Origin: a virus
DNA length: 35,613 bases
Virus genome (UHGV): UHGV-0122175
Direction: 5' to 3' (one strand)
Positions within the stretch are counted from its first letter, which is position 1; every line of letters begins with the position of its first letter. The translations under genes and the position numbers were made by a program. Shown here in pieces: positions 5,120 to 28,047 of the stretch. Under the pieces are notes generated by a model. That model was not told the origin of the DNA, ran no database searches, and worked only from the letters and a program-made list of their open reading frames with translations.

Positions 5120-5140
5120 GAAACCAGAACATGCACACAC

Positions 5141-5441
5141 AAAAAAACCGCTTGCCATGCCGCAATCAGTCAGGTTACATTTCCGCTGCACCTCATAAAA
5201 CGGGTGCCGGGATTCTCAACCCGATACAGAGCAAAGCGCATAACCGCGCAAGCGGTTTTTTTGTGCGTACCGTATTGCCACGTCTTTTTCGCGTCAGAAT
5301 TATGGCGGGGCGTACGGGGCCGACTTCGGTCGGGCCGGATTCTTTGCTCTCCGGTGTTGAGAACCCTGTACGTCTCGCCACCCCGAGATTCTCAACTCTG
5401 GATGGTGAGTTATTTCTATCACCGAGCAAAGAGGCCACACC
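5141..5441. other. Structured non-coding region (candidate ncRNA or regulatory element)
   Basis: About 300 bp without a convincing ORF. It holds a 15-bp long-range inverted repeat (5141..5155 vs 5248..5262), an imperfect 28-nt inverted repeat (5208..5236 vs 5342..5366), a CCGAC-TTCG-GTCGG hairpin and three copies of GATTCTCAAC. Confidence 0.35.
5242..5262 (+). terminator. Candidate intrinsic terminator
   Basis: AACCGC-gcaa-GCGGTT stem followed by a run of seven T. It lies downstream of the 4820..5119 gene. Confidence 0.4.
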
Positions 5442-5672
5442 ATGGCAAACCGCAAACAGCACCGCGCATACGCTGCGCGTCGTCACATCCAGACTGAAAT
5501 CAACCGCAGACTTTTCCGCGCATTCCGCGTCGCGCAAATCATGCACATCAATATGCTGCATGAGCGCAGTCACGCACTATCGAACAGCTATTCCGCCTCT
5601 GTTTTCAGCTATCTGGCGGATGATCTGCGCGAGCTTCAGCAGCTCATCCAGCAGCAAAACAAACTCCATTAA
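5442..5672 (+). CDS. Hypothetical basic protein
   Basis: 76 aa, AAAGAGG ribosome-binding site, Arg-rich N-terminus (MANRKQHRAYAARRHIQTEINRR). Confidence 0.5.
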   Translation: MANRKQHRAYAARRHIQTEINRRLFRAFRVAQIMHINMLHERSHALSNSYSASVFSYLADDLRELQQLIQQQNKLH

Positions 5673-5744
5673 TTACTGTTCCGGGCCTTTCCTGCACCTT
5701 GCGGCGGGAGGCCTTCGCACATCTGTAACAAGAGGATTGCCGCA

Positions 5745-6110
5745 ATGATTCTCGCCAACGACTTTCTTGAATACCTGCTCAACACAGAACGTGATCTTGC
5801 CGCTCGCGTGCGTGATCGTTATGACATGTACCTGAAATCCCTGCCTGTACCGCAGCTCGCTGACGGAAAGATTGTTATTGATGGTCGCTACATGATTGAC
5901 AGCCATGAGGGAAATTACAGGCTTTACCGCATTGAAGGTGGCACCCCGTACGTTATTGGCATTTACCAGCGCCCATCCTCTGCAATCGTCGATGTGATTG
6001 CCGACAGCATCCGCATCACACATCGCCATGCCGACACAGAAGACACCGTGCTGGAAATTCAGCGGCTGGCTACAGTCTGCCGCGACACCCTGAATGGCAT
6101 GACGAAGTAA
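5745..6110 (+). CDS. Hypothetical protein upstream of A
   Basis: 121-aa ORF with AAGAGGA ribosome-binding site, immediately upstream of the replication gene. Confidence 0.6.
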   Translation: MILANDFLEYLLNTERDLAARVRDRYDMYLKSLPVPQLADGKIVIDGRYMIDSHEGNYRLYRIEGGTPYVIGIYQRPSSAIVDVIADSIRITHRHADTEDTVLEIQRLATVCRDTLNGMTK

Positions 6111-6116
6111 ATCACT

Positions 6117-8939
6117 ATGACGGCAGAGTACATCAGGGACTGGCAGCAACCGCGCCACGCAGTGGGGCGTGAAGGAACGGGGATCCCCGCTCCTGAATCC
6201 GCGCTTTCCTCCTGGCTGGATGCCTACCGGGTAGAGAACGAACGCCGCCAGGAAATGGCTGATGCGGCGTTCTCCACCACGCCGCTGGGCAACCTGATTA
6301 ATAAAAGCCTGGACGCACAGGAAAAACAGGACAAAACCATCACACTGGCAGGAGACGCCAGAAAACAGGCACGCGGCGCGGTGGATGAAGCCATGGCCTC
6401 GCTGCGCCTGCTGCCGTCCTATCTACGCGATCCGCTTATTCGCCACCTCTCCTTCCTGCGCAAAAAACAGGAAGCCGATCGCCGGAAAGGCGAAAAGAGC
6501 TGGCAGGCGGAGCGCTATGCACGCGGAACCCTGCGCAAAATATTCGAACGTCTGGATCGCACTGACGGACGCTGGCTGACACCGGGGTATCGCTCCCTTG
6601 CCGGACGCGAACACCTGGACGATTTGCTGTACCTGCCGCAGCTCAACAAACACCAGATACAGACGCTGGCCACCATGACGGCGGCGATGTTCAGCAGCAC
6701 CTTCGAAAAACTCTGCGATGGCTTTGGCGCGACTGATGGCGAACTGACCATGGATGTAACGCTGAAGGCGTATCAGATGCTGGCCCGCATGGCGTTACAC
6801 CTGCACGCCATGCCTCCACATTATGACGCACTGACAACAGACAAAGACCGGAGGAACGAACCGGACACAGAGCTGCTGCCGGGCGCAATCCTTCGCCTGA
6901 CCTGTGCGGAATGGTGGAAACGCAAACTGTGGCTGTTACGTTGCGAGTGGAGAGAAGAACAACTCCGCGCCGCCTGTCTGGTTTCCAGAAAAACATCGCC
7001 CTATCTGAGCCAGGACGCGTTAAGCGAGTTTCGCGCACAGCGCGAGAAAACACGCGATTTCCTGAAAAGTTTCATGCTGGAAAATGAAGACGGGTTCACG
7101 ATTGATCTTGAGACAGTGTATTACGCGGGAGTAAGTAACCCGGTTCACCGTAAGGCAGAAATGATGGCCACCATGAAGGGGCTGGAACTTCTGGCCGAAG
7201 CCCGTGGCGACAAAGCGGTGTTTCTGACTGTCACCTGCCCGTCAAAATACCACGCCACAACAGAGAACGGTCATCCGAATCCCAAATGGAACGGGGCCAC
7301 CATGCGCGACTCCAGCGATTACCTGGTTAACACGTTTTTTGCGGCGGTCCGCAAGAAACTGAACCGCGACGGCCTGCGCTGGTATGGCATCCGCACGGTG
7401 GAGCCTCACCATGACGGCACCGTGCACTGGCATATGATGGTCTTTGCTCATCCGGAAGAAATCGACACCATTGTGTCCCACACCCGCGATATTGCCATTC
7501 AGGAAGATCGTCACGAGCTGGGCGATGATATTACTCCGCGCTTTAAGGCGGAGTATGTCGACGGCTCAAAAGGCACGCCAACCAGCTACATCGCCACCTA
7601 CATCGGAAAAAACCTGGACAGCCGCGCCGTGGATGGCATCGACCCGAAAACGGGCAAGCCACGCGTTGACCACGAAACCGGAAAATCAATGGCCGAGAGC
7701 GTGGAGCGCGCCATCGGCTGGGCGCGCCTTCACCGGGTCCGCCAGTTCCAGTTCTTTGGCATCCCCTCCCGTCAGGTGTGGCGTGAACTGCGCCGCCTTG
7801 CCAGCCAGATGGCACGCAACCCGGAAGGCCCGCAACGGCTGAAGGATGACGCAATGGATGCAGTGCTCGCTGCCGCTGATGCCGGGTGTTTTGCCTCCTA
7901 CATTGAAAAACAGGGCGGCGTACTTGTTCCACGCAAAGACTACCTGATTCGCACCGCCTACGACCTCGCAGATGAGCTGAACGATTACGGCGAACAGAGC
8001 GTACAGATTTACGGGATCTGGTCACCACTCATCGGGGAGTCTTCCCGTGTGTGCACACATCCGGATAACTGGAAGCTGGTAAGACGTAAACCGGAAGCGG
8101 AAGACAGCGCCCGCGAAAATGGTTTTGACCTTCAGGGCGGCCCTGCCGCCCCTTGGACTCGTGGCAATAACTGTCCCCGTGTACAGGAAACGGACAACAA
8201 CGGGACAGAACAGCCGGAAGAACGGCCAGCACCGTGGCCGCAGCTCCCTGACGGCGTTGAAGTGAACGAATGGATGCGCTCACTGAAACGGCACGAACGC
8301 CGGGCGCTGATGCGTTCGCTTCGTGACAAACAGGCAAAAAACAGCCGTGATGAAATGCAGAGCTGGACACAGAGCCGCAAACAGCAGCGGCCTTTGCCTG
8401 ATAACCACGAACTACTCGCTAAAGAATGGCGGGAGTCTGCTGAATCTCTCGGCCTGCATATCGGTGAACAGCAGATGCAGCACCTGTTACGGGGCGGCAG
8501 TCTGTACGTTGACGGCAGCAACATTGCACCGCAGGGATTTGAAATTGTACGCAAACCGGATACCCGACCGGACAGCCGGATCACGCAGCTCTGGCAGCGC
8601 CTGAGCCGTAACCACGGCGTAAGCAGTACGGAGATCCGCCATAACCCGGTCGCCAGCTATCTGGAACAGCTGGGGACATCAGACCCCGAAGCCGCCGCAC
8701 GCCTGGCATCCACACTTCAGCAAGACCAGAACACCATGAAAACACCCGTTACCGTGCTTTCTGACATGCTGCGCGCCATCCGCGACGCAGAGCACGCACA
8801 GAGAATCAGTGAAACCACTGAACGCGCCCGCCGCAAAGCAGACCTGCTGCGGGGTGGCCTGACCAGTGGAAACAAAAAACAGACAGAAACGGGATTCACA
8901 AATCCCGTAAATGAGCAAAAAACGCGCCGCGATATATGA
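6117..8939 (+). CDS. A: Replication initiation protein A (rolling-circle, HUH-type nickase)
   Basis: 940-aa ORF at the end of the early operon. Contains a His-hydrophobic-His motif (TVHWHMMVFAH) and a paired-tyrosine motif (YIATYIGKN) characteristic of phiX174/P2 A-type initiators. Confidence 0.85.
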   Translation: MTAEYIRDWQQPRHAVGREGTGIPAPESALSSWLDAYRVENERRQEMADAAFSTTPLGNLINKSLDAQEKQDKTITLAGDARKQARGAVDEAMASLRLLPSYLRDPLIRHLSFLRKKQEADRRKGEKSWQAERYARGTLRKIFERLDRTDGRWLTPGYRSLAGREHLDDLLYLPQLNKHQIQTLATMTAAMFSSTFEKLCDGFGATDGELTMDVTLKAYQMLARMALHLHAMPPHYDALTTDKDRRNEPDTELLPGAILRLTCAEWWKRKLWLLRCEWREEQLRAACLVSRKTSPYLSQDALSEFRAQREKTRDFLKSFMLENEDGFTIDLETVYYAGVSNPVHRKAEMMATMKGLELLAEARGDKAVFLTVTCPSKYHATTENGHPNPKWNGATMRDSSDYLVNTFFAAVRKKLNRDGLRWYGIRTVEPHHDGTVHWHMMVFAHPEEIDTIVSHTRDIAIQEDRHELGDDITPRFKAEYVDGSKGTPTSYIATYIGKNLDSRAVDGIDPKTGKPRVDHETGKSMAESVERAIGWARLHRVRQFQFFGIPSRQVWRELRRLASQMARNPEGPQRLKDDAMDAVLAAADAGCFASYIEKQGGVLVPRKDYLIRTAYDLADELNDYGEQSVQIYGIWSPLIGESSRVCTHPDNWKLVRRKPEAEDSARENGFDLQGGPAAPWTRGNNCPRVQETDNNGTEQPEERPAPWPQLPDGVEVNEWMRSLKRHERRALMRSLRDKQAKNSRDEMQSWTQSRKQQRPLPDNHELLAKEWRESAESLGLHIGEQQMQHLLRGGSLYVDGSNIAPQGFEIVRKPDTRPDSRITQLWQRLSRNHGVSSTEIRHNPVASYLEQLGTSDPEAAARLASTLQQDQNTMKTPVTVLSDMLRAIRDAEHAQRISETTERARRKADLLRGGLTSGNKKQTETGFTNPVNEQKTRRDI
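8889..8908. repeat. 20-bp palindrome ACGGGATT-n4-AATCCCGT (copy 1, inside the 3' end of A)
   Basis: Perfect 8-bp inverted arms, read directly from the sequence. Confidence 0.6.
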
Positions 8940-8961
8940 AGCGCGCATAAAACAGGCAAAA

Positions 8962-8981
8962 ACGGGATTTCAGAATCCCGT
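8962..8981. repeat. 20-bp palindrome ACGGGATT-n4-AATCCCGT (copy 2, upstream of parM-like gene)
   Basis: Same arms as copy 1. Centres are 73 bp apart, about seven helical turns. Confidence 0.6.
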
Positions 8982-9015
8982 AAACGATTAATTAATCAAC
9001 ATAAGGAAAAGCGAC

Positions 9016-9975
9016 ATGAAAATTTGTATCGATGACGGCTCCACCAACATCAAGCTGGCATGGACTGAGAACGGCGAACGCCGCAACGCCATCAGCCCAA
9101 ACAGCTTCAAGTCGGAATGGTCTGCGCCGTTCGGTGGCACGCAGCCCGCGAACTACATGCTTGATGGCGTGCGCTATGGTTTTGATCCGGTCAGCGATCG
9201 CTTTGTCCAGACGACCGACACGCAATACCAGTACAGCGATGTGAATGTCATTGCCATTCATCACGCGCTGGTCAAATCAGGCATCACACCACAGGAAGTG
9301 GATGTGGTTGTCACCCTGCCACTGAGCGAATATTTCGACACAAACGCACAGCCGGACATGGCCAACATCAACCGCAAAAAAGCGAACGTTATGCGCCCGG
9401 TGGAGTACCAGAACGGCGAAGCATTCACTATCCGTAACGTGCGGGTTATGCCTGAATCCATTCCGGCTGGCTTTAAGGCACTGGCTGACATGAGTCCGTT
9501 TGAATCCCTGCTGATTGTGGATTTGGGCGGAACCACGCTGGATGTGGCAAAGGTTCAGGGGCAACTGGCAGGTATCAGCCAGGTGTTTTGCGATCCACAC
9601 GTAGGCGTTTCTCTGATGGCCGATGCCGTACTGTCGGTGATGGCCACTAACGGTATGCGCACCAGTCACCACATCGCCAATACCATTATCGAACATCGCC
9701 ATGATGAAGCCTGGTTGCGCCAGCACATCCACAATGACGCGCATTACGCCAGCCTGATGGCGGTTATTCGTGAAAAGGAAGAAACACTGAAACAACGAGT
9801 GATCCGCGCGCTGGCGGGGTTTTCGGGTTACGGGCGGGTGATGGTTGTCGGTGGCGGGGCGGAGATTGTGGCACCCGCTATCCGCGAAGCCTGCGGAGTT
9901 AATGCGACTTTCATCGCGGACGGGGTGCCACAGTTTGCTCTGGTTAATGGGCTGTACGCAATGGACAAGGAGTAA
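9016..9975 (+). CDS. parM: Actin-like segregation ATPase, ParM/StbA family
   Basis: 319 aa. N-terminus MKICIDDGSTNIKLAW closely matches the plasmid R1 ParM N-terminus as I recall it (MLVFIDDGSTNIKLQW). Also has the actin-fold phosphate motif IVDLGGTTLD and C-terminal VMVVGGGAE. Strong AAGGAA ribosome-binding site. Confidence 0.8.
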   Translation: MKICIDDGSTNIKLAWTENGERRNAISPNSFKSEWSAPFGGTQPANYMLDGVRYGFDPVSDRFVQTTDTQYQYSDVNVIAIHHALVKSGITPQEVDVVVTLPLSEYFDTNAQPDMANINRKKANVMRPVEYQNGEAFTIRNVRVMPESIPAGFKALADMSPFESLLIVDLGGTTLDVAKVQGQLAGISQVFCDPHVGVSLMADAVLSVMATNGMRTSHHIANTIIEHRHDEAWLRQHIHNDAHYASLMAVIREKEETLKQRVIRALAGFSGYGRVMVVGGGAEIVAPAIREACGVNATFIADGVPQFALVNGLYAMDKE

Positions 9976-9979
9976 ACCA

Positions 9980-10294
9980 ATGACGACTCCAACCAGACGG
10001 ATAAGTTTCTATCTGAAGCCAGCAGCCGTCAAGAGTGAACGAGAAGCGTGTAATTATCTCGACAGCCTGCCAGCCTCCGAACGCAGCCGCGCGCAACGCG
10101 CGGCATTTCTGGCTGGACTGGCGCTTATTAAAAGCGATCCCGCCTTTGCTTACTGGCTGGCTGAATGGCAGGAAGAGGAAGCAATACCACCAAGAAATAA
10201 CATCCGAAACAAGCATACTGGCACATCTGCAACAGAAAACAGTCACAGTAAGAGCCAGTTAAAAAGGAACATTCAGGAGTTTTTCCCAGAATAA
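9980..10294 (+). CDS. parR: ParR-like centromere-binding adaptor
   Basis: 105 aa from ATG 9980, with AAGGAG upstream, directly after parM. The segment YLDSLPASERSRAQRAAFLAGLAL resembles R1 ParR (LDSIPQGERSRLNRAALTAGLAL, from memory). Confidence 0.65.
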   Translation: MTTPTRRISFYLKPAAVKSEREACNYLDSLPASERSRAQRAAFLAGLALIKSDPAFAYWLAEWQEEEAIPPRNNIRNKHTGTSATENSHSKSQLKRNIQEFFPE

Positions 10295-10300
10295 CCTACA

Positions 10301-10325
10301 AACACCCTTCACGGGTGTTTTTTCA
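10301..10325 (+). terminator. Intrinsic terminator after the parMR-like operon
   Basis: AACACCC-ttcac-GGGTGTT stem followed by TTTTTT. Confidence 0.6.
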
Positions 10326-10339
10326 TGTTTACCCTAATA

Positions 10340-10381
10340 ATCGATCTGTTAAACAGATAGATATTGATTTATCTATCGATT
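10340..10381. promoter_or_regulatory. Operator-like cluster of palindromes upstream of the orphan genes
   Basis: ATCTGTT-A-AACAGAT and ATAGATA-n6-TATCTAT inverted repeats, bracketed by ATCGAT. A TTGACA -35-like hexamer follows at 10398..10403. Confidence 0.3.
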
Positions 10382-10470
10382 AAAACGATCAATACCCTTG
10401 ACAGTTGTATGGGATTTTGTAGGATCGATCACGATATGACCACTTTGTTTGTGTGTCATGCATAGGAAAA

Positions 10471-10498
10471 CGCCCCAATAGCGGTAACTATTGGGGCG
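10471..10498. other. Perfect 11-bp stem-loop
   Basis: CGCCCCAATAG-cggtaa-CTATTGGGGCG. On the minus strand it is followed by TTTTCC, which looks like a terminator. On the plus strand it would sit in the 5' UTR of the 10604 gene. Confidence 0.35.
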
Positions 10499-10603
10499 CC
10501 AAAGAAATCGAGGTGTCATCTACCTCTTGAGCTCGCCGGAATCGTATTTTCTGCGTGTGCCCATGTAAAGGTGAACACCTCATTTTATTGAGGTAAATCA
10601 AAT

Positions 10604-10882
10604 ATGGGTATAAAGATTTGTAAAAACTCCCACCGATACAACCCCCAATACTCACACCTTCCCGATAACCAGGGACAGACAGGCCGCCACCGCTGCGCTG
10701 CCTGCGCATACGAGCTTGGTGTACTTCACGCAATGATCGGTATTCCTAAAGCTAAAGATGATTCCTTCCTGGCAAATATTCCATATAGCCAGGCTGGCAC
10801 AGTCAGACATAAAGACGCCTTTGAGGCATACATGCTTGGGTACGACTATGCAATGAGCAGCGCACTGCTCAAAGCTGCATAA
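10604..10882 (+). CDS. Hypothetical protein (orphan gene 1 in the A-Q hotspot)
   Basis: 92 aa, GAGGT ribosome-binding site, lower GC than the backbone. Contains a Cys/His cluster (CKNSH...HRCAAC). No family recognised. Confidence 0.5.
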   Translation: MGIKICKNSHRYNPQYSHLPDNQGQTGRHRCAACAYELGVLHAMIGIPKAKDDSFLANIPYSQAGTVRHKDAFEAYMLGYDYAMSSALLKAA

Positions 10883-10948
10883 CGATTTCTGCTTTTTCAC
10901 CACCTCAACAATAGTTGGAGAGGTGGTTCTTCTGAAAAGGATAATCAA

Positions 10949-11236
10949 ATGACCGATATTAAAAGAAGCGATTTATTTTATGACGATTACAGTTGGACTG
11001 CTTTGCCAGGAGATGATCCCACGAAAACCGCTGCTGACCGCCATCGGTTTAGCCGCAAAGAGGGTTATGAAGTACTAAATATGCTTAATTCCTTTAAGGC
11101 ATACTCCCTGAAAGAGAAACTCATTGTCGAATGGATGATTCACGAACACTTACCATCAGGTATTCAGGGAAGGGAAAATGTTAAAGACTGGATTAAACAA
11201 AACTTCCTCAAATTCAAGTTAATTTATCCACGCTGA
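10949..11236 (+). CDS. Hypothetical protein (orphan gene 2 in the A-Q hotspot)
   Basis: 95 aa, AAAGGA ribosome-binding site, AT-rich. Separated from gene 1 by an 8-bp stem hairpin (10899..10927). No family recognised. Confidence 0.5.
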   Translation: MTDIKRSDLFYDDYSWTALPGDDPTKTAADRHRFSRKEGYEVLNMLNSFKAYSLKEKLIVEWMIHEHLPSGIQGRENVKDWIKQNFLKFKLIYPR

Positions 11237-11532
11237 CTGAATATCAGAGAATGAAACCCTGAACGGGCGCACAAACGAAACGAGCGTGCCATGCCCGACG
11301 CACATACAAAGGCGGAGATGCACTCTCCGCCTCATAGTGGTTAACGCATTTAGAAAACATCAAATTTGTCAAACAATCTTTCATATTAACCCCTCCAGAT
11401 TCAAACACACTCTGGGATTGTTGTTAGCTAGTCACTGGGATTTTGCGTTTATAGTTTCACCTCGCCCAATCCACTGAAATTTTTAGTCAACTCAAGCTAA
11501 CGCGCGTGTTAAATATATGCTCATTTTCAAAC

Positions 11533-11560
11533 TGCACAATAGTGCACAAATTTGCACAAT
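11533..11560. repeat. Three phased direct repeats of TGCACAA
   Basis: Copies at 11533, 11543 and 11554, about one helical turn apart, in the non-coding region beside the portal gene where cos is expected. Confidence 0.5.
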
Positions 11561-11934
11561 TTTTTTGAACGACTTTTTGCCCTTCCGGCCCGCATGGCGG
11601 CTGGATCCGTCAGGGATCCGTGCGTGCACAAAAAAACGCGCTTTTTCTGCGCGCAGGTGACGGGGGAACAGCCCGCGTTTCAGGGGGTAAATAGCATTCC
11701 CTGAACGATGTCGCAGAGATACAACAGAATGGCTGTCTTTCTCACGCTGAGCGTGAAAAAGACGTGAGGGCTTTTGATTTGATGGGGTGGCAGATAAGGC
11801 CGTCAAAATCGCACTGAGGCGGCGAGAACATGCAGTCAGCGCGATGGGATTGCGTAAGAGCCTGACCGCCGATGATGGCAATAAGCTGGAAGGCGTCGTG
11901 AAATTATCTGATTGATACAGGAGCTGGAGAGTCG

Positions 11935-11957
11935 GGGCATAAATTTTTTATGCCCCG
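11935..11957. other. Stem-loop downstream of the portal gene
   Basis: GGGGCAT-aaatttttt-ATGCCCC, just 3' of the Q stop on the minus strand. It has no clear U-tail, so terminator status is uncertain. Confidence 0.35.
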
Positions 11958-11983
11958 GCGAAGCAGCAGACAAGCGAAGCGCG

Positions 11984-13030
11984 TCAGGATGTGGGCGGGG
12001 TGTCCAGCAGTGCGTAAGGGTTAAAGCGGATCACCTCTTCGCCAAGCCAGTCATTGATGTGCTTCATGGCCTCCATAACGGGCATCAGTTCGTTAATTGC
12101 GTAAACCCGCGCGGCCTTCTCCACATCACCAAACGCACTTTTTTCACCCGGCATCGCCCCCATCAGTTGCGGCGGAACGCGGTGCGCAGCCAGCACATCA
12201 TCACGGGATGCCACCTTAACATTCATGAACTCATCTTTTGCGGTGATCTGCTGGAACGGCAAAATTTGCACCCCCTCTTTGCCCCCATTGGGCGCATGAA
12301 TGAGCACGTTTTTAAATGCACCACCACCACGTGCACCCTGTAGCGTTTCCTTCAGGGAGTCCATGCTTTCGCGGTTTACCTGCGCTGCACCGATGTAGAT
12401 GATGCACCCGGCGTGGGATCCATTGTCGTAGTACAGTTTTCTGAACATGTCCGCCGAATGAGACAGGCTGGCCGAGAGTAATGCGCCGAGATATTCCGGC
12501 ATGCCGTAGATTTCCTGGTTAATGTCAGGATTCATCAGGTGGCACACTTTGCCAGGGCGAAACTGAAACGCATCCTTACCATCCTGCACATACCACCATG
12601 ATTCAAGATCGCTTCCGCGTCGCATGTATTTCGCCAGGGCGTGCCGTAATTTAAGCGGTTCGCCGAGCATATTGCTCCGAAGCTCAAGGAATGCGTTACC
12701 GAACACAAACCAGTCCAGCGCCAGCGCCGAGAAATCCTGCCGGGAAAGCAGCGGGTGCGGGATGTAGCAACCGAGCAATACATTACGCTTAAAGTAAAGC
12801 GCAGACTGATGCCAGGACGTTTGCCGGGCAGCTCTTGCCAGACCGTACCAGTCCACCGGGGTTTCATACCACCGCCCGTTATCAGCACAGTACATATTGT
12901 CCAGCAAATCATGCCCGGTCAGGCGATAAGGACCATCAAATGTGAATGCACTGAGCGACGATTCTTTCCTGAGCGCATCAGCGAGATCAATGCGTGAACT
13001 CATGCGCACTTTTTTATTTTTTCTGCTCAT
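11984..13030 (-). CDS. Q: Portal protein (P2 Q-like)
   Basis: 348 aa, close to P2 Q in size. Divergent from the O-N-M-L operon and adjacent to the large terminase, as in P2. Confidence 0.9.
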   Translation of the reverse strand: MSRKNKKVRMSSRIDLADALRKESSLSAFTFDGPYRLTGHDLLDNMYCADNGRWYETPVDWYGLARAARQTSWHQSALYFKRNVLLGCYIPHPLLSRQDFSALALDWFVFGNAFLELRSNMLGEPLKLRHALAKYMRRGSDLESWWYVQDGKDAFQFRPGKVCHLMNPDINQEIYGMPEYLGALLSASLSHSADMFRKLYYDNGSHAGCIIYIGAAQVNRESMDSLKETLQGARGGGAFKNVLIHAPNGGKEGVQILPFQQITAKDEFMNVKVASRDDVLAAHRVPPQLMGAMPGEKSAFGDVEKAARVYAINELMPVMEAMKHINDWLGEEVIRFNPYALLDTPPTS

Positions 13031-25339: not shown

Positions 25340-25867
25340 ATGCAGCACTAAAAAAATATCAGGTCAGGAAACCCAAAGACAAAAGAGCAATACCAATTAA
25401 CAAAGAATTTTGACGTAATCTGGTTGTGGTCTGAAGACGGAAAAAACTGGTATGAGGAAGTGAAAAACTTTCAACCAGACACAATAAAGATTGTTTACGA
25501 TGAAAATAATATTATTGTCGCCATCACCAAAGATGCATCCACGCTTAACCCTGAAGGTTTTAGCGTCGTTGAGGTTCCCGATATTACAGCCAACCGCCGC
25601 GCTGATGATTCAGGAAAGTGGATGTTTAAGGATGGAGCTGTAGTTAAACGGATTTATACGGCAGACGAACAGCAACAACAAGCTGAATCACAAAAGGCCG
25701 CATTGCTTTCCGAAGCTGAATCAGTCATCCAGCCGCTGGAACGCGCTGTCAGGCTGAATATGGCAACAGACGAGGAACGCACACGACTGGAAGCATGGGA
25801 ACGCTACAGTGTTCTGGTCAGCCGTGTGGATACGGCAAATCCTGAATGGCCACAAAAGCCTGAATAA
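25340..25867 (+). CDS. G: Tail fibre assembly chaperone G (expressed orientation), with in-frame TAA at codon 4
   Basis: ATG 25340, CAG, CAC, then TAA (25349..25351). The frame reopens and matches G' residue for residue ([36 protein letters not shown]). The ORF track restarts at TTG 25424. Confidence 0.6.
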
Positions 25868-25895
25868 AAATTAAGGCCCGATAGCGGGCCTTGTC

Positions 25896-26429
25896 TCATT
25901 CAGGTTGTTCGGGAAACGTTACTGGCAGGCTGGAAGTGTCTGTAGATTCGACTTTCTGCGCAAAGAGCATCCACTCTGTTAATTTTTGTTTATTCTCGTC
26001 GGAAATGATGCCCAGCCGTAGCTGTGAGTCCCATAGCTGGGTTTTATCCCTGACGAGCTGTAGCAGGCTTTGCTTTTCATTTTCCGCCAGCTGCCTCTGC
26101 TCTTCCTCGGTATAAGTTCGCTTTACCACTACGCCATCTTTGAACATCCACTTACCCGAAATGTCAGCACGGCGATTTGCTGTAATATCAGGTAATTCAA
26201 CGACGCTTGCGCCTTCCGGATTAATTGCTGAAACATCCTTTTCAATACAAATAATAACGCCGTTATGGTCATAGACCATTTTCAAAGTGTCTGGCTGGAA
26301 ATTCTTTTGTTCCTCATACCAGTTTTTCCCATCCTCTGTATAAAGCCATTTGATGTTAAATTGTTTCGTTAGCTGGTATTGCTCTTTTGTTTTAGGGTTG
26401 CCAGCAGTAATATTTTTTAAGTGCATCAT
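25896..26429 (-). CDS. Alternative tail fibre assembly chaperone G'
   Basis: 177 aa, intact. N-terminus [40 protein letters not shown] parallels G. Confidence 0.8.
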   Translation of the reverse strand: MMHLKNITAGNPKTKEQYQLTKQFNIKWLYTEDGKNWYEEQKNFQPDTLKMVYDHNGVIICIEKDVSAINPEGASVVELPDITANRRADISGKWMFKDGVVVKRTYTEEEQRQLAENEKQSLLQLVRDKTQLWDSQLRLGIISDENKQKLTEWMLFAQKVESTDTSSLPVTFPEQPE

Positions 26430-26431
26430 AA

Positions 26432-27376
26432 TTAAATACTCCCCGCGTTATACCACGTTCCATTAATGCAATACTGAATTGGCCTTGCCTGAGTTGTATC
26501 AATTAATTCATCACGGTTTCCGTTAACTGAACCCGTAACGACATAACCTGACCTGTCAGACCAGCCGGGGCCATTCCATGTCTGAACAGATGACAGACCG
26601 CCAAGGCGAATACCTGTAATAAACCTTGAGTTACATTCTGCCTGCGTGTATGCACCAACATCTCCCGCAGAGGGTTTGCGGGTCGTGGTGTAAAACTCTG
26701 ACCAGTCAGCCTCAAATCCATAACCATCACGCGCTGAACGATAAAAAATACCGCCGTTCCTGTAATTCACGCGGAACTGTACAGCAGGGCAGCTCCCCGT
26801 ATTCATATTGAAGTGGAGGATTAATGTCGATGTGCCACCAATGTTTGCGTTATAGACCCCGCTATTCCAGTTCCAGCCAACAGCTTTATCATTTCCGACA
26901 GTGCTTCCTGTTTGTCCTAAAGCAAATGCAGGTTGTTGATTTTTCGTGTTGTAGTCTCGTCGCCAGCCAGGAGCATAAGCATCACCATGATTAATATAAG
27001 TGAATTGAGCGTTAGTAATTCCGCCACCGCTGGACGTGCTCGGCGTGGTAACGCGTATGGTCATTGCGCTGCGAGTGCCAATAACTTCCACCACAGCACC
27101 TGCAAGACAAATATTTCCGCAACCTGTATCTGTAATGACCTTATTATTTGCATAAGCCCATGAGCCTTTGCACATCCAGTAAGGATGGTTAAATGCTCCC
27201 TGACTCTCCAGCCACGAAATAAATTGCGCGGTTGTCCAGACCTGACTATCGCCACCAATATTCAGCCATGCGCTATATGCGCGGCAGGCCCCAATATTTT
27301 TGGTGAAGGTATCTTTTCCCGGAATATCTGCGCCGTTCTGGTTTTTCTGTAATGCGCCAGAAGCCTGATTTACCGT
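26432..27376 (-). CDS. Alternative tail-fibre C-terminal segment H'v (no promoter or start of its own in this orientation)
   Basis: The minus-strand frame is open from the right gix site down to 26432. It begins LGLQETVNQASGALQKN..., parallel to H residues EYLGLQETVNRAGNAVQKN. Confidence 0.7.
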   Translation of the reverse strand, partial: TVNQASGALQKNQNGADIPGKDTFTKNIGACRAYSAWLNIGGDSQVWTTAQFISWLESQGAFNHPYWMCKGSWAYANNKVITDTGCGNICLAGAVVEVIGTRSAMTIRVTTPSTSSGGGITNAQFTYINHGDAYAPGWRRDYNTKNQQPAFALGQTGSTVGNDKAVGWNWNSGVYNANIGGTSTLILHFNMNTGSCPAVQFRVNYRNGGIFYRSARDGYGFEADWSEFYTTTRKPSAGDVGAYTQAECNSRFITGIRLGGLSSVQTWNGPGWSDRSGYVVTGSVNGNRDELIDTTQARPIQYCINGTWYNAGSI

Positions 27377-27402
27377 TTCCTGTAAACCGAGGTTTTAGAT
27401 AA
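27377..27402. repeat. gix/hix-like invertase crossover site (right)
   Basis: TTCCTGTAAACCGAGGTTTTAGATAA. Near-identical to the Mu gixL sequence as I recall it (TTCCTGTAAACCGAGGTTTTGGATAA). Confidence 0.75.
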
Positions 27403-27456
27403 TGGCCGTTTCCGGCCTGCATGGCATGATTTGCGCTTTTGGACGGGAGATTCAGC

Positions 27457-28047
27457 GTGCTGATTGGCTATGTAAGGGTATCAACAAATGACCAGAATAC
27501 AGACCTGCAACGAAACGCTCTTGTTTGTGCCGGATGTGAACAAATATTTGAAGATAAATTAAGCGGGACAAAGACAGACCGACCGGGATTAAAACGCGCT
27601 TTAAAGCGCCTTCAAAAAGGTGACACGCTGGTTGTCTGGAAACTGGATCGCCTCGGGCGAAGCATGAAACATCTGATTTCTCTCGTCGGGGAACTACGGG
27701 AGCGAGGGATTAATTTTCGCAGTCTGACCGATAGCATAGATACATCTTCTCCAATGGGGCGTTTTTTCTTCCACGTGATGGGTGCCCTGGCTGAAATGGA
27801 ACGTGAATTAATTGTTGAACGTACACTGGCCGGACTGGCGGCAGCGCGCGCACGGGGGCGCACAGGCGGACGTCGACCGAAGCTGACAAAAGAACAGCAT
27901 GAGCAAATAGCAAGGCTGATTAAAAACGGTCACGACAGAAAACAACTGGCAATAATTTACAGCATTGGTATATCGACAATTTATCGTTACCACCCCGCAG
28001 GAGAATCAAGTGGAACAATTGAGAAGAGTAAACAAAATAACCGCTAA
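27457..28047 (+). CDS. Serine DNA invertase (Gin/Pin/Cin/Hin family)
   Basis: GTG start with GGGAGA ribosome-binding site. N-terminus LIGYVRVSTNDQNTDLQRNAL with the catalytic Ser, and a C-terminal HTH. Sits just outside the invertible segment. Confidence 0.9.
   Translation: MLIGYVRVSTNDQNTDLQRNALVCAGCEQIFEDKLSGTKTDRPGLKRALKRLQKGDTLVVWKLDRLGRSMKHLISLVGELRERGINFRSLTDSIDTSSPMGRFFFHVMGALAEMERELIVERTLAGLAAARARGRTGGRRPKLTKEQHEQIARLIKNGHDRKQLAIIYSIGISTIYRYHPAGESSGTIEKSKQNNR

Follow-up and report, generated by a model that had tools for sequence, protein, structure and literature searches.

The gene pair parMR of a P88-like phage, together with the repeats in front of it, may well be a working DNA-segregation cassette of type II (ParMRC) that has long belonged to the backbone of these phages and would act on transient circular forms of their genome; we give this reading a probability of about one half. 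The stretch of DNA analysed here, 35,613 nucleotides in all and called the window below, is a P88-like (Xuanwuvirus, Peduoviridae) phage of Escherichia coli. Its positions 1-25000 match P88 with 96.3% DNA identity over 80%, the identity to P88 and phiSM being about 96% across 70-80% of the first 25 kb, and the order int-C-early genes-A-parMR-Q-P is common to the window and P88. The ParM/ParR partition cassette of P88-like phages is already annotated and published: RefSeq labels the genes 'plasmid segregation protein ParM' and 'partition protein', and both the partition system and the speculation that such phages live as plasmids, which a preliminary description of this DNA had put forward, can be found in Rousset et al. 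2022 and Pfeifer et al. 2021. In the searchable literature we found no functional study of, or experiment on, the cassette in P88-like phages.

The features of the locus are as follows.

6117-8939, + strand: gene A, encoding the gpA rolling-circle replication endonuclease, 940 aa (Pfam Phage_GPA, E 2e-131)
8873-8987, no strand: candidate parC-like centromere/operator, two 42-nt direct-repeat units with palindromes
9016-9975, + strand: parM, encoding an actin-like filament-forming ATPase of 319 aa (Pfam, R1 structure match)
9980-10294, + strand: parR, encoding a ribbon-helix-helix centromere-binding adaptor of 104 aa (Pfam, PHROG, R100 identity)
10300-10320, + strand: intrinsic terminator of the parMR unit (8-bp stem, loop of 5, U-run)
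11984-13030, - strand: portal gene, the downstream flank of the locus

The pair thus lies between gpA and the portal gene, in the gpA-gpQ locus, which is the site of old and tin in P2 and of many defence systems elsewhere (PMC9122126). Four nucleotides separate the parM stop from the parR ATG, with AAGGAG immediately 5' of the latter. The preliminary description had proposed a two-gene ParM/ParR-like operon between A and Q that ends in a strong terminator, and the operon is borne out, with R1-type homologues on the + strand at the coordinates listed. Its terminator is a real hairpin with a U-run, which at 8 bp, with a folding energy of -10.7 kcal/mol and a z of -3.4, is moderate and not exceptionally strong. 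The terminator scan reported no + strand terminator-like site from the A stop to parM. A sigma-70 promoter scan gave no + strand match 5' of parM, a result that is uninformative on parM expression because the same scan also misses the experimentally known parM promoter of R100. Transcription of the two genes probably comes from the early operon that includes A, at whose far end they would lie, and ParR may regulate its own expression.

The 319-aa protein readily passed the profile check for a member of the ParM/StbA family. Residues 1-157 match Pfam StbA_N (E 1.8e-82) and residues 159-316 the ParM C-terminal domain (E 1.3e-68), the protein falls into PHROG 691 'partition protein', and it matches the crystallised R1 ParM (1mwk) along its full length with an E of 9e-93. 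Its identity to R100 ParM is 47%, again over the full length, and an alignment of the two shows that the nucleotide-binding motifs IDDGSTNIKL, MPESIPAG, DLGGTTLD and GGGAE are kept, so that the actin-fold ATPase expected of a type II partition system is present with its nucleotide-binding motifs intact. The small ribbon-helix-helix adaptor that such a system carries directly 3' of parM is present as well. The second protein matches Pfam Plasmid_stab_B (E 3.7e-26) and PHROG 2515, which confirms its proposed identity as ParR; the N-terminal domain shares 43% identity with that of R100 ParR, and the match to pB171 ParR (2jd3) has an E of 0.002.

ParR varies far more than its partner. The ParM of P88 (gp17/gp18 being its ParM/ParR pair) is 100% identical to that of the window and the order A-parM-parR-cargo-Q is the same, whereas the ParR allele is only 52% identical and the cargo 3' of parR differs; the DNA match breaks at about 10047, the linker and helices having been swapped by recombination. 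Several divergent ParR alleles with recombination breakpoints within the gene occur, the variation lying mostly in the linker. In an alignment of 11 phage ParRs the N-terminal strand RRISFYLKP is conserved and the linker variable; the C-terminal tail, KRNIQEFFPE in the window, keeps the pattern [KR]-x-N-[IA]-x-x-[LF]-F-P in 11/11 in spite of the hypervariable linker, and it resembles the R100 ParR tail KKNAMKLIN. Besides P88, the relatives of the window among Xuanwuvirus and P88-like phages are phiSM, 569R5, 520873 and P884B11.

Upstream of parM lie two direct-repeat units of 42 nt, at 8873-8914 and 8946-8987, with a spacing of 73 bp. Each consists of an A/C-rich stretch and a palindrome, and the first falls within the 3' end of gene A. 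The 20-bp palindrome, ACGGGATTnnnnAATCCCGT, stands at 8889-8908 and 8962-8981, and its pattern has exactly 2 occurrences in the 35.6 kb against 0.01 expected. Two sites of the form GGG[AT]-N8-[AT]CCC are found at -125/-52 from the parM ATG in the window, at -131/-59 in Plesiomonas and at -128/-55 in Hafnia, so that their positions are kept across the E. coli, Plesiomonas and Hafnia lineages despite diverged flanks. In Hafnia an extra ORF separates A from parM, which implies that the paired sites track parM and not the end of A. In the lineages of Serratia and Enterobacter the inverted repeat upstream of parM is a different one. Within the E. coli lineage 2/20 columns vary in the site cores against 31/140 around them, a difference that is not significant, and only the conservation of position across genera is therefore informative on the palindromes.

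Judging from this arrangement, the two palindromic sites could plausibly form a minimal parC to which ParR would bind, and they could also be mainly an operator. That they are terminators or RNA hairpins was considered and rejected: in E. coli they fold at -10.7 kcal/mol with no + strand U-run, and the terminator scan flags both as terminator-like on the minus strand only. Plesiomonas and Hafnia keep only GGG...CCC, which favours a protein-binding site over a conserved RNA stem. The palindrome-rich stretch at 10340-10393 was also rejected as an alternative centromere; it lies past the terminator, in non-conserved cargo common to the two closest relatives only.

R1 and R100 carry the paradigm of type II partition, ParMRC (parA/stb). 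The order parC-parM-parR is that of the window with its candidate parC, repeat blocks 5' of parM likewise stand on either side of a spacer of about 50 bp, the RBS regions resemble each other (CATAAGGA), and the ParR tails KKNAMKLIN and KRNIQEFFPE are of the same type. In contrast, the plasmids have about ten direct iterons of 11 bp upstream of parM where the window has two candidate palindromic sites 73 bp apart, and their host replicon is a plasmid where that of the window is an integrating P2-like phage.

Having only two candidate sites and no iteron array would suit an inert relic that hitch-hikes with A, or a ParR that serves alone and represses by way of the two palindromes, partition having been lost. 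Truncated copies do occur, both as clonal parM copies (L001, for example, has an internal stop) and as clusters of truncated ParM proteins of 188-261 aa with 414-649 members. However, 17/18 sampled parM copies are intact, and over 18 copies, which span E. coli, E. albertii and Salmonella, the pN/pS of parM is 0.085, whereas parR has 0.22-0.34 and the final 140 codons of A have 0.31. Such strong purifying selection on a 319-aa ATPase whose ATP-binding motifs are all kept, a ParR tail of the ParM-binding type conserved across genera, and the retention of the cassette in P2-like phages down to 54% ParM identity make a relic or a lone repressor the least probable of the explanations considered, with a very small chance of being right.

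The cassette is common and its presence follows that of the replication gene. It occurs in 1303/5426 complete E. coli genomes (~24%), strains of O157:H7, O104:H4, O55:H7 and O111 included, and parMR is found in 1279 of the 1320 complete E. coli genomes that have this type of gpA. A scan of contigs with ParM gave only three near-identical loci (E. albertii, Salmonella and a 'Vagococcus' assembly that is probably contaminated), and the distant relatives of ParM were obtained by protein search and contig look-ups. These show the order gpA-parM-parR also in P2-like prophages of Plesiomonas, Hafnia, Serratia and Enterobacter, with ParMs 54-63% identical to that of the window. In a neighbour-joining tree the ParMs of the five lineages checked (the window and the four genera) share one clade of 16 members, which leaves out the plasmid and ICE ParMs that were checked. 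GC3 is 0.647 in parM and 0.645 in A, against 0.355 in the parM of R100, and it is only 3' of parR that variable, low-GC cargo starts.

The preliminary description had placed the pair in the tin/old hotspot as cargo, and as to position in the gpA-gpQ locus it was right; that the genes are interchangeable does not agree with their presence in 1279/1320 genomes or with a GC3 equal to that of A, since neither the patchy presence nor the foreign composition of hotspot cargo is seen. Among the outcomes that it had set against its own proposal was that the pair turns out to be core genes of the lineage and to lack centromere activity; of the two halves, the core one is what the 1279/1320 amount to. 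Thus parMR is a near-core module, long resident in the backbone of the P88-like (Xuanwuvirus) branch, and not swappable cargo.

The position at the old/tin locus would suit a role in defence, the theme of the gpA-gpQ hotspot (PMC9122126), and the divergent ParR alleles with their internal breakpoints might reflect diversifying pressure. One could therefore imagine that the genes are expressed in the lysogen for exclusion or incompatibility, prophage ParR/ParM disturbing incoming ParMRC plasmids or related superinfecting phages. Yet PADLOC, with its 5027 defence models, returned no match for ParM, ParR or the two small downstream ORFs, and the presence of the pair is near-universal and linked to lineage instead of patchy. 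ParM hardly varies (pN/pS 0.085), which sets it apart from genes in an arms race, and the variation of ParR lies mostly in its linker. Moreover, the DNA-reading strand RRISFYLKP and the palindromic sites differ from RTIAFKLNP and the iterons of R100, which makes cross-binding of ParR unlikely. We regard such an exclusion function as improbable, if slightly less so than decay of the cassette.

A more serious contender is the facultative plasmid prophage of Rousset et al. 2022 and Pfeifer et al. 2021, in which a lysogen would carry the P88-like phage either integrated or as a low-copy episome that ParMRC maintains. A complete type II cassette does adjoin the replicon. One circular record of 34.4 kb, NZ_CP148288.1, was deposited as a plasmid and holds an entire P88-like genome, and the Plesiomonas relative sits on a phage-sized contig of 32 kb. 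Phage D6, whose record of 91 kb annotates its ParM as StbA, has a protein 47.8% identical to the ParM of the window; it is a tailed coliphage too, a P1-like phage-plasmid, whereas the phage of the window integrates. Against an episome stand the chromosomal location of 1441/1443 copies in complete E. coli genomes and of 10/10 evenly sampled copies, the nearest relative of the window being integrated beside yecA, as well as the intact tyrosine integrase (Int_N and Phage_integrase) of the window itself. Lysogens of phiSM have been found by experiment to be integrated at pdxB, and P88, which was induced from a lysogen, is reported as integrated.

NZ_CP148288.1 is the sole phage-sized circular plasmid record, and its portal and tape measure genes are frameshifted; it could be an excised circle or a record with assembly errors. 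The other 'plasmid' matches were rejected as evidence of episomal phage, since they are mostly records between 227 kb and 1.4 Mb in size, or a linear contig of Shigella riddled with IS elements. Beside parMR, gpA, a rolling-circle initiator of the P2 type, was the sole replication initiator seen. In P2 the early operon that contains gpA is repressed in lysogens, so that no controlled plasmid replication is evident. Neither a prophage that is as a rule extrachromosomal nor, next to parMR, a plasmid-type controlled replicon independent of the integrase, which together characterise a phage-plasmid, was thus found, and the stable phage-plasmid lifestyle that the preliminary description had suggested is contradicted by the 1441/1443 chromosomal copies, the intact integrase and the integrated phiSM and P88. 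We consider an episomal form of lysogeny unlikely, though clearly better founded than either exclusion or decay.

There remains the question of what a partition system could do in a phage of this kind, and here a segregation cassette that acts on transient circles seems to us the best answer. As the prophage is normally integrated, its substrate is most likely a transient extrachromosomal form. P2 replicates from an origin nicked by gpA to give monomeric double-stranded circles, and it is such monomeric circles, arising from gpA rolling-circle replication after infection or after excision, that may be partitioned. ParR dimers would bind the two palindromic sites directly 5' of parM, the C-terminal ParR tail, to go by the homology with R1, would capture the ends of ATP-ParM filaments, and the elongating filaments would then separate pairs of circular phage genomes. 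By spreading the circles, ParMRC could ensure that each daughter cell retains a copy; the benefit might be that fewer lysogens abort, that curing after non-productive excision is rarer, or that lytic replication is better organised.

More specifically, we speculate that parMRC is integral to P2-type replication, a minimal two-site segrosome that partitions the gpA circles and thereby raises lysogenisation or prevents curing. We put this forward tentatively, as a possibility of perhaps one chance in a few. In 2/10 sampled prophages A is a pseudogene and parMR is intact, which fits poorly with a function that depends strictly on A.

Partition of the transient circles of an integrating element has precedents, and the same logic has been shown by experiment for srpMRC (PMC4489591) and AlpAC (PMC4446434). 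The closest functional analogue of the role that we propose for phage parMR is the srpMRC of SXT/R391, a type II partition system on an element that, like the phage of the window, is normally integrated, and one that is paired with a rolling-circle (HUH-type) initiator replicating the excised circle. It stabilises the excised, TraI-replicated R391 and lowers the loss of the element (Carraro et al. 2015, PMC4489591). We liken the two by description and not by sequence: SXT/R391 is an ICE and not a phage, and SrpM and SrpR have been described as only distant relatives of R1 ParM and ParR (PMC4489591), whereas the proteins of the window are close homologues of these. The second precedent, AlpAC/alpS, belongs to the integrated prophage CGP3 of Corynebacterium glutamicum and again joins an actin-like ATPase to a DNA-binding adaptor whose target sites lie in its own promoter region (Donovan et al. 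2015, PMC4446434). AlpAC is induced early and is required for efficient replication of circular CGP3 DNA (PMC4446434). Here the homology seems confined to the actin fold; the bacterium is Gram-positive, the Alp proteins form a divergent family and the adaptor gene comes first.

If parMRC is indeed integral to P2-type replication, it would become the first case of type II partition demonstrated in the life cycle of a tailed coliphage that integrates, and the persistence of an intact actin-like ATPase in prophages of ~24% of complete E. coli genomes would be accounted for. For the classification of phage genomes the cassette is a caution: a partition system by itself is insufficient to call a phage-plasmid. 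Should the cassette indeed act on transient circles, estimates of lysogenisation and of prophage stability would be affected, and the principle known from SXT/R391, namely replication and partition while excised, would extend to tailed phages.

The identity of the cassette parts, ParM and ParR, is secure. The preliminary description had placed two ORFs with ParM- and ParR-like products, closed by a terminator, in the slot between A and Q, and all of this holds:

6117-8939, + strand: gpA, the rolling-circle replication endonuclease gene (A), upstream of parMR
9016-9975, + strand: parM, 319 aa; Pfam StbA_N (E 1.8e-82) and ParM C-terminal domain (E 1.3e-68)
9980-10294, + strand: parR, 104 aa; Pfam Plasmid_stab_B (E 3.7e-26)
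10300-10320: terminator (hairpin and U-run), end of the parMR unit
11984-13030, strand opposite to parMR: portal gene (Q), downstream

Both proteins match ParM/StbA or ParR profiles in HMM searches, and their PHROG families are both labelled "partition protein". Over its full length ParM aligns with the crystallised R1 protein (1mwk, E 9e-93); it is 47% identical to R100 ParM, with the nucleotide-binding motifs unchanged. ParR matches pB171 ParR (2jd3), and its N-terminal domain shares 43% identity with R100 ParR. The cassette thus occupies the gpA-gpQ locus, which in P2 holds old and tin (PMC9122126).

We take the window to be a P88-like (Xuanwuvirus, Peduoviridae) temperate phage or prophage, because it encodes a tyrosine integrase, a C-type repressor and an early operon ending in A, followed by parMR and then by P2-type morphogenetic genes, a tail-fibre invertase, gpD and an Ogr-like protein; because P88 and phiSM are ~96% identical to its first 25 kb over 70-80% of length; and because its ParM and the P88 protein are 100% identical. 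The suggested check for circularity of the source contig gave no terminal redundancy in the window. Two other elements were seen. Rfam places isrK at 5188-5262 (+, 63 bits) and C4 antisense RNA at 5298-5385 (+, 78.5 bits), both scoring above the gathering threshold; the two lie inside or overlap an early-region ORF (5131-5748) with a weak Ash-family match, and 5188-5385 is a P1/P7-type c4 antisense immunity element within a P2-like early operon. A Hin/Gin-type serine invertase (27439-28047; Resolvase and HTH_7) adjoins oppositely oriented tail-fibre and assembly ORFs, the whole (25424-28047) being a tail-fibre host-range inversion switch.

The preliminary description had placed parMR in the P2 tin/old hotspot; it proves to be a core module of the P88-like lineage, tied to gpA, and not hotspot cargo. 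Among 5426 complete E. coli genomes, an A gene of the window's type is present in 1320 and parM in 1279 (at least 80% query coverage). In ten E. coli copies sampled evenly down the ranking, parM and parR were intact directly 3' of A every time, and the genes after parR differed almost every time (a ClpX zinc-finger protein, ead/Ea22, IS3, various hypotheticals), as they do in P88 and the related phage 569R5. The GC3 of parM (0.647; GC 0.55) is indistinguishable from that of A (0.645) and far from that of R100 parM (0.355), and beyond the terminator GC falls to 0.40-0.47. ParM homologues of 54-63% identity in Plesiomonas, Hafnia, Serratia and Enterobacter all lie in P2-like prophages with the order gpA, parM, parR, variable genes, portal; at ~49-50% identity, one homologue lies in an ICE and one in an integrated F-like plasmid. 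A neighbour-joining tree of 107 ParMs (no bootstrap) puts the window and these four lineages within one 16-member clade free of checked plasmid or ICE sequences. Given these linkage counts, the composition, the four-genus order and the tree, the gpA-parMR association is old, and the true variable hotspot starts after parR, in some phages inside it.

In two of the ten sampled prophages (NZ_CM192159.1, NZ_CP077452.1) parM and parR are intact and gpA is annotated as a pseudogene, in one case frameshifted and in the other N-terminally truncated. A 226-kb contig labelled Vagococcus sp., Firmicutes (NZ_JBQPOM010000071.1), carries a P88-like parM 98% identical to the window's, most likely through enterobacterial contamination or mislabelling of the assembly. 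Beyond the terminator, 10330-11980 is low-GC (0.40-0.47) variable cargo with no Pfam, NCBIfam or PADLOC match and no convincing ORF in its last part (11240-11980, about 740 bp):

10340-10393: palindrome-rich stretch
10398-10425: promoter-like site
10604-10882: small ORF, PHROG 3941
10949-11236: small ORF, PHROG 33929

In a set of 18 copies (E. coli, E. albertii and Salmonella) the pN/pS of parM is 0.085, compared with 0.31 for the last 140 codons of A and 0.22-0.34 for parR; between the window and P88 there are 17 synonymous differences and no non-synonymous one. The gene is intact in 17 of the 18, and only in the nearest E. coli relative is it broken, by an internal stop; sizeable clonal clusters of truncated ParM are also present in the protein database. 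The reading of parMR as a relic, or as a regulator only, is barely plausible.

ParR varies in a patterned way. Its N-terminal strand, RRISFYLKP, does not vary at all within the E. coli lineage and hardly varies in other genera, and its C-terminal tail, [KR]-x-N-[IA]-x-x-[LF]-F-P, which resembles the R100 tail KKNAMKLIN, is kept everywhere. The linker is hypervariable and the helical part exists in at least three alleles among phages with ParMs 98-100% identical; the ParR alleles of such phages are only 51-95% identical, with strand and tail kept. From a working adaptor one would expect just this, with the DNA-reading strand and the motor-binding tail fixed and the linker free to vary. DNA matches break at about 10047, 10169 and 10290; in loci L002-L007 and L017-L026 of our database set, recombination breakpoints of the gpA-gpQ variable region lie in the 3' two-thirds of parR (10047-10294).

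A candidate centromere lies upstream of parM:

8873-8914 and 8946-8987: two 42-nt direct repeats, 73 bp apart, each with the palindrome ACGGGATTnnnnAATCCCGT

The palindrome pattern has no further copy in the window (0.01 matches expected). Plesiomonas carries a pair of 26-nt repeats at a spacing of 72 bp, and GGG[AT]-N8-[AT]CCC sites stand at -125/-52 from the parM ATG in E. coli, -131/-59 in Plesiomonas and -128/-55 in Hafnia. In Hafnia there is an additional ORF between A and parM, and the sites keep to parM. This arrangement is like that of R100, with its two iteron blocks either side of the promoter, but R100 has about ten 11-bp iterons and the phage two sites. Serratia and Enterobacter carry a different long inverted repeat upstream of parM: in Serratia (L009, 7887-7978) and Enterobacter (L014, about 130 nt upstream), the GGGA...TCCC sites are replaced by GAAATAGAAAAATG...CATTTTTCTATTTC with 14-nt arms, then a GCCGTTTAAACGGC palindrome with direct ATTTCATGACC repeats on either side, which suggests a different ParR operator architecture. 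Within E. coli the palindrome cores are not significantly more conserved than their flanks. We grade 8873-8987 as a probable, not a demonstrated, minimal parC/operator because the cross-genus placement speaks for it and the few sites, the Serratia/Enterobacter repeat and the E. coli core conservation speak against.

The extrachromosomal phage-plasmid lifestyle proposed earlier finds little place. The window encodes an integrase, and of the 1443 places counted in complete E. coli genomes, 1441 are chromosomal. The nearest relative is integrated beside yecA, phiSM uses pdxB as its integration site, and mitomycin induces P88 from a lysogen. One record, NZ_CP148288.1 (E. coli Z1323PEC0009), is a 34,461-bp circular "plasmid" holding a complete P88-like genome with integrase and parMR. 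Its portal gene has a frameshift near codon 186 and its tape measure has two frameshifts; either a defective phage is being maintained there as an episome, or the record contains long-read errors. Remaining plasmid matches are large records or one unplaced contig. With the chromosomal counts, the integrated relatives and a single frameshifted circular record, a stable phage-plasmid state is at best rare, and facultative episomal lysogeny is an unlikely role for the cassette.

We propose, at roughly even odds (about 0.5), that parMR acts as a ParMRC system on circular phage genomes: ParR would bind the two candidate sites, its tail would cap ParM filaments, and the filaments would separate the circles. 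Since the prophage is integrated, the substrate would be the transient circles that gpA produces once the phage has infected a cell or excised. No + strand terminator lies between A and parM and one follows parR directly, which fits transcription of parMR at the distal end of the early operon; our promoter scan gave no + strand hit upstream of parM, but it misses the known R100 parM promoter as well. Binding, timing and benefit are inferred. Two analogues have been studied experimentally. In SXT/R391 ICEs, srpMRC stabilises the element in its excised state, in which it replicates in rolling-circle fashion (PMC4489591). In prophage CGP3, AlpAC is induced early, and efficient replication of the circular phage DNA depends on it (PMC4446434). 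An exclusion or incompatibility function, for which a PADLOC match is absent, is very unlikely. Rousset et al. 2022 had already remarked on this partition system and raised a plasmid lifestyle as a speculation. P88 has been flagged for partition genes yet noted as integrated (Pfeifer et al. 2021), the phiSM paper lists a parM/parR gene as cargo, and the literature searched held no functional work on the P88-lineage cassette. The original observation is correct, but neither "hotspot cargo" nor "phage-plasmid" is supported as a reading of it; the feature is ordinary for a common phage lineage, already annotated and already discussed, and its role is a reasonable bench question, not a new discovery.
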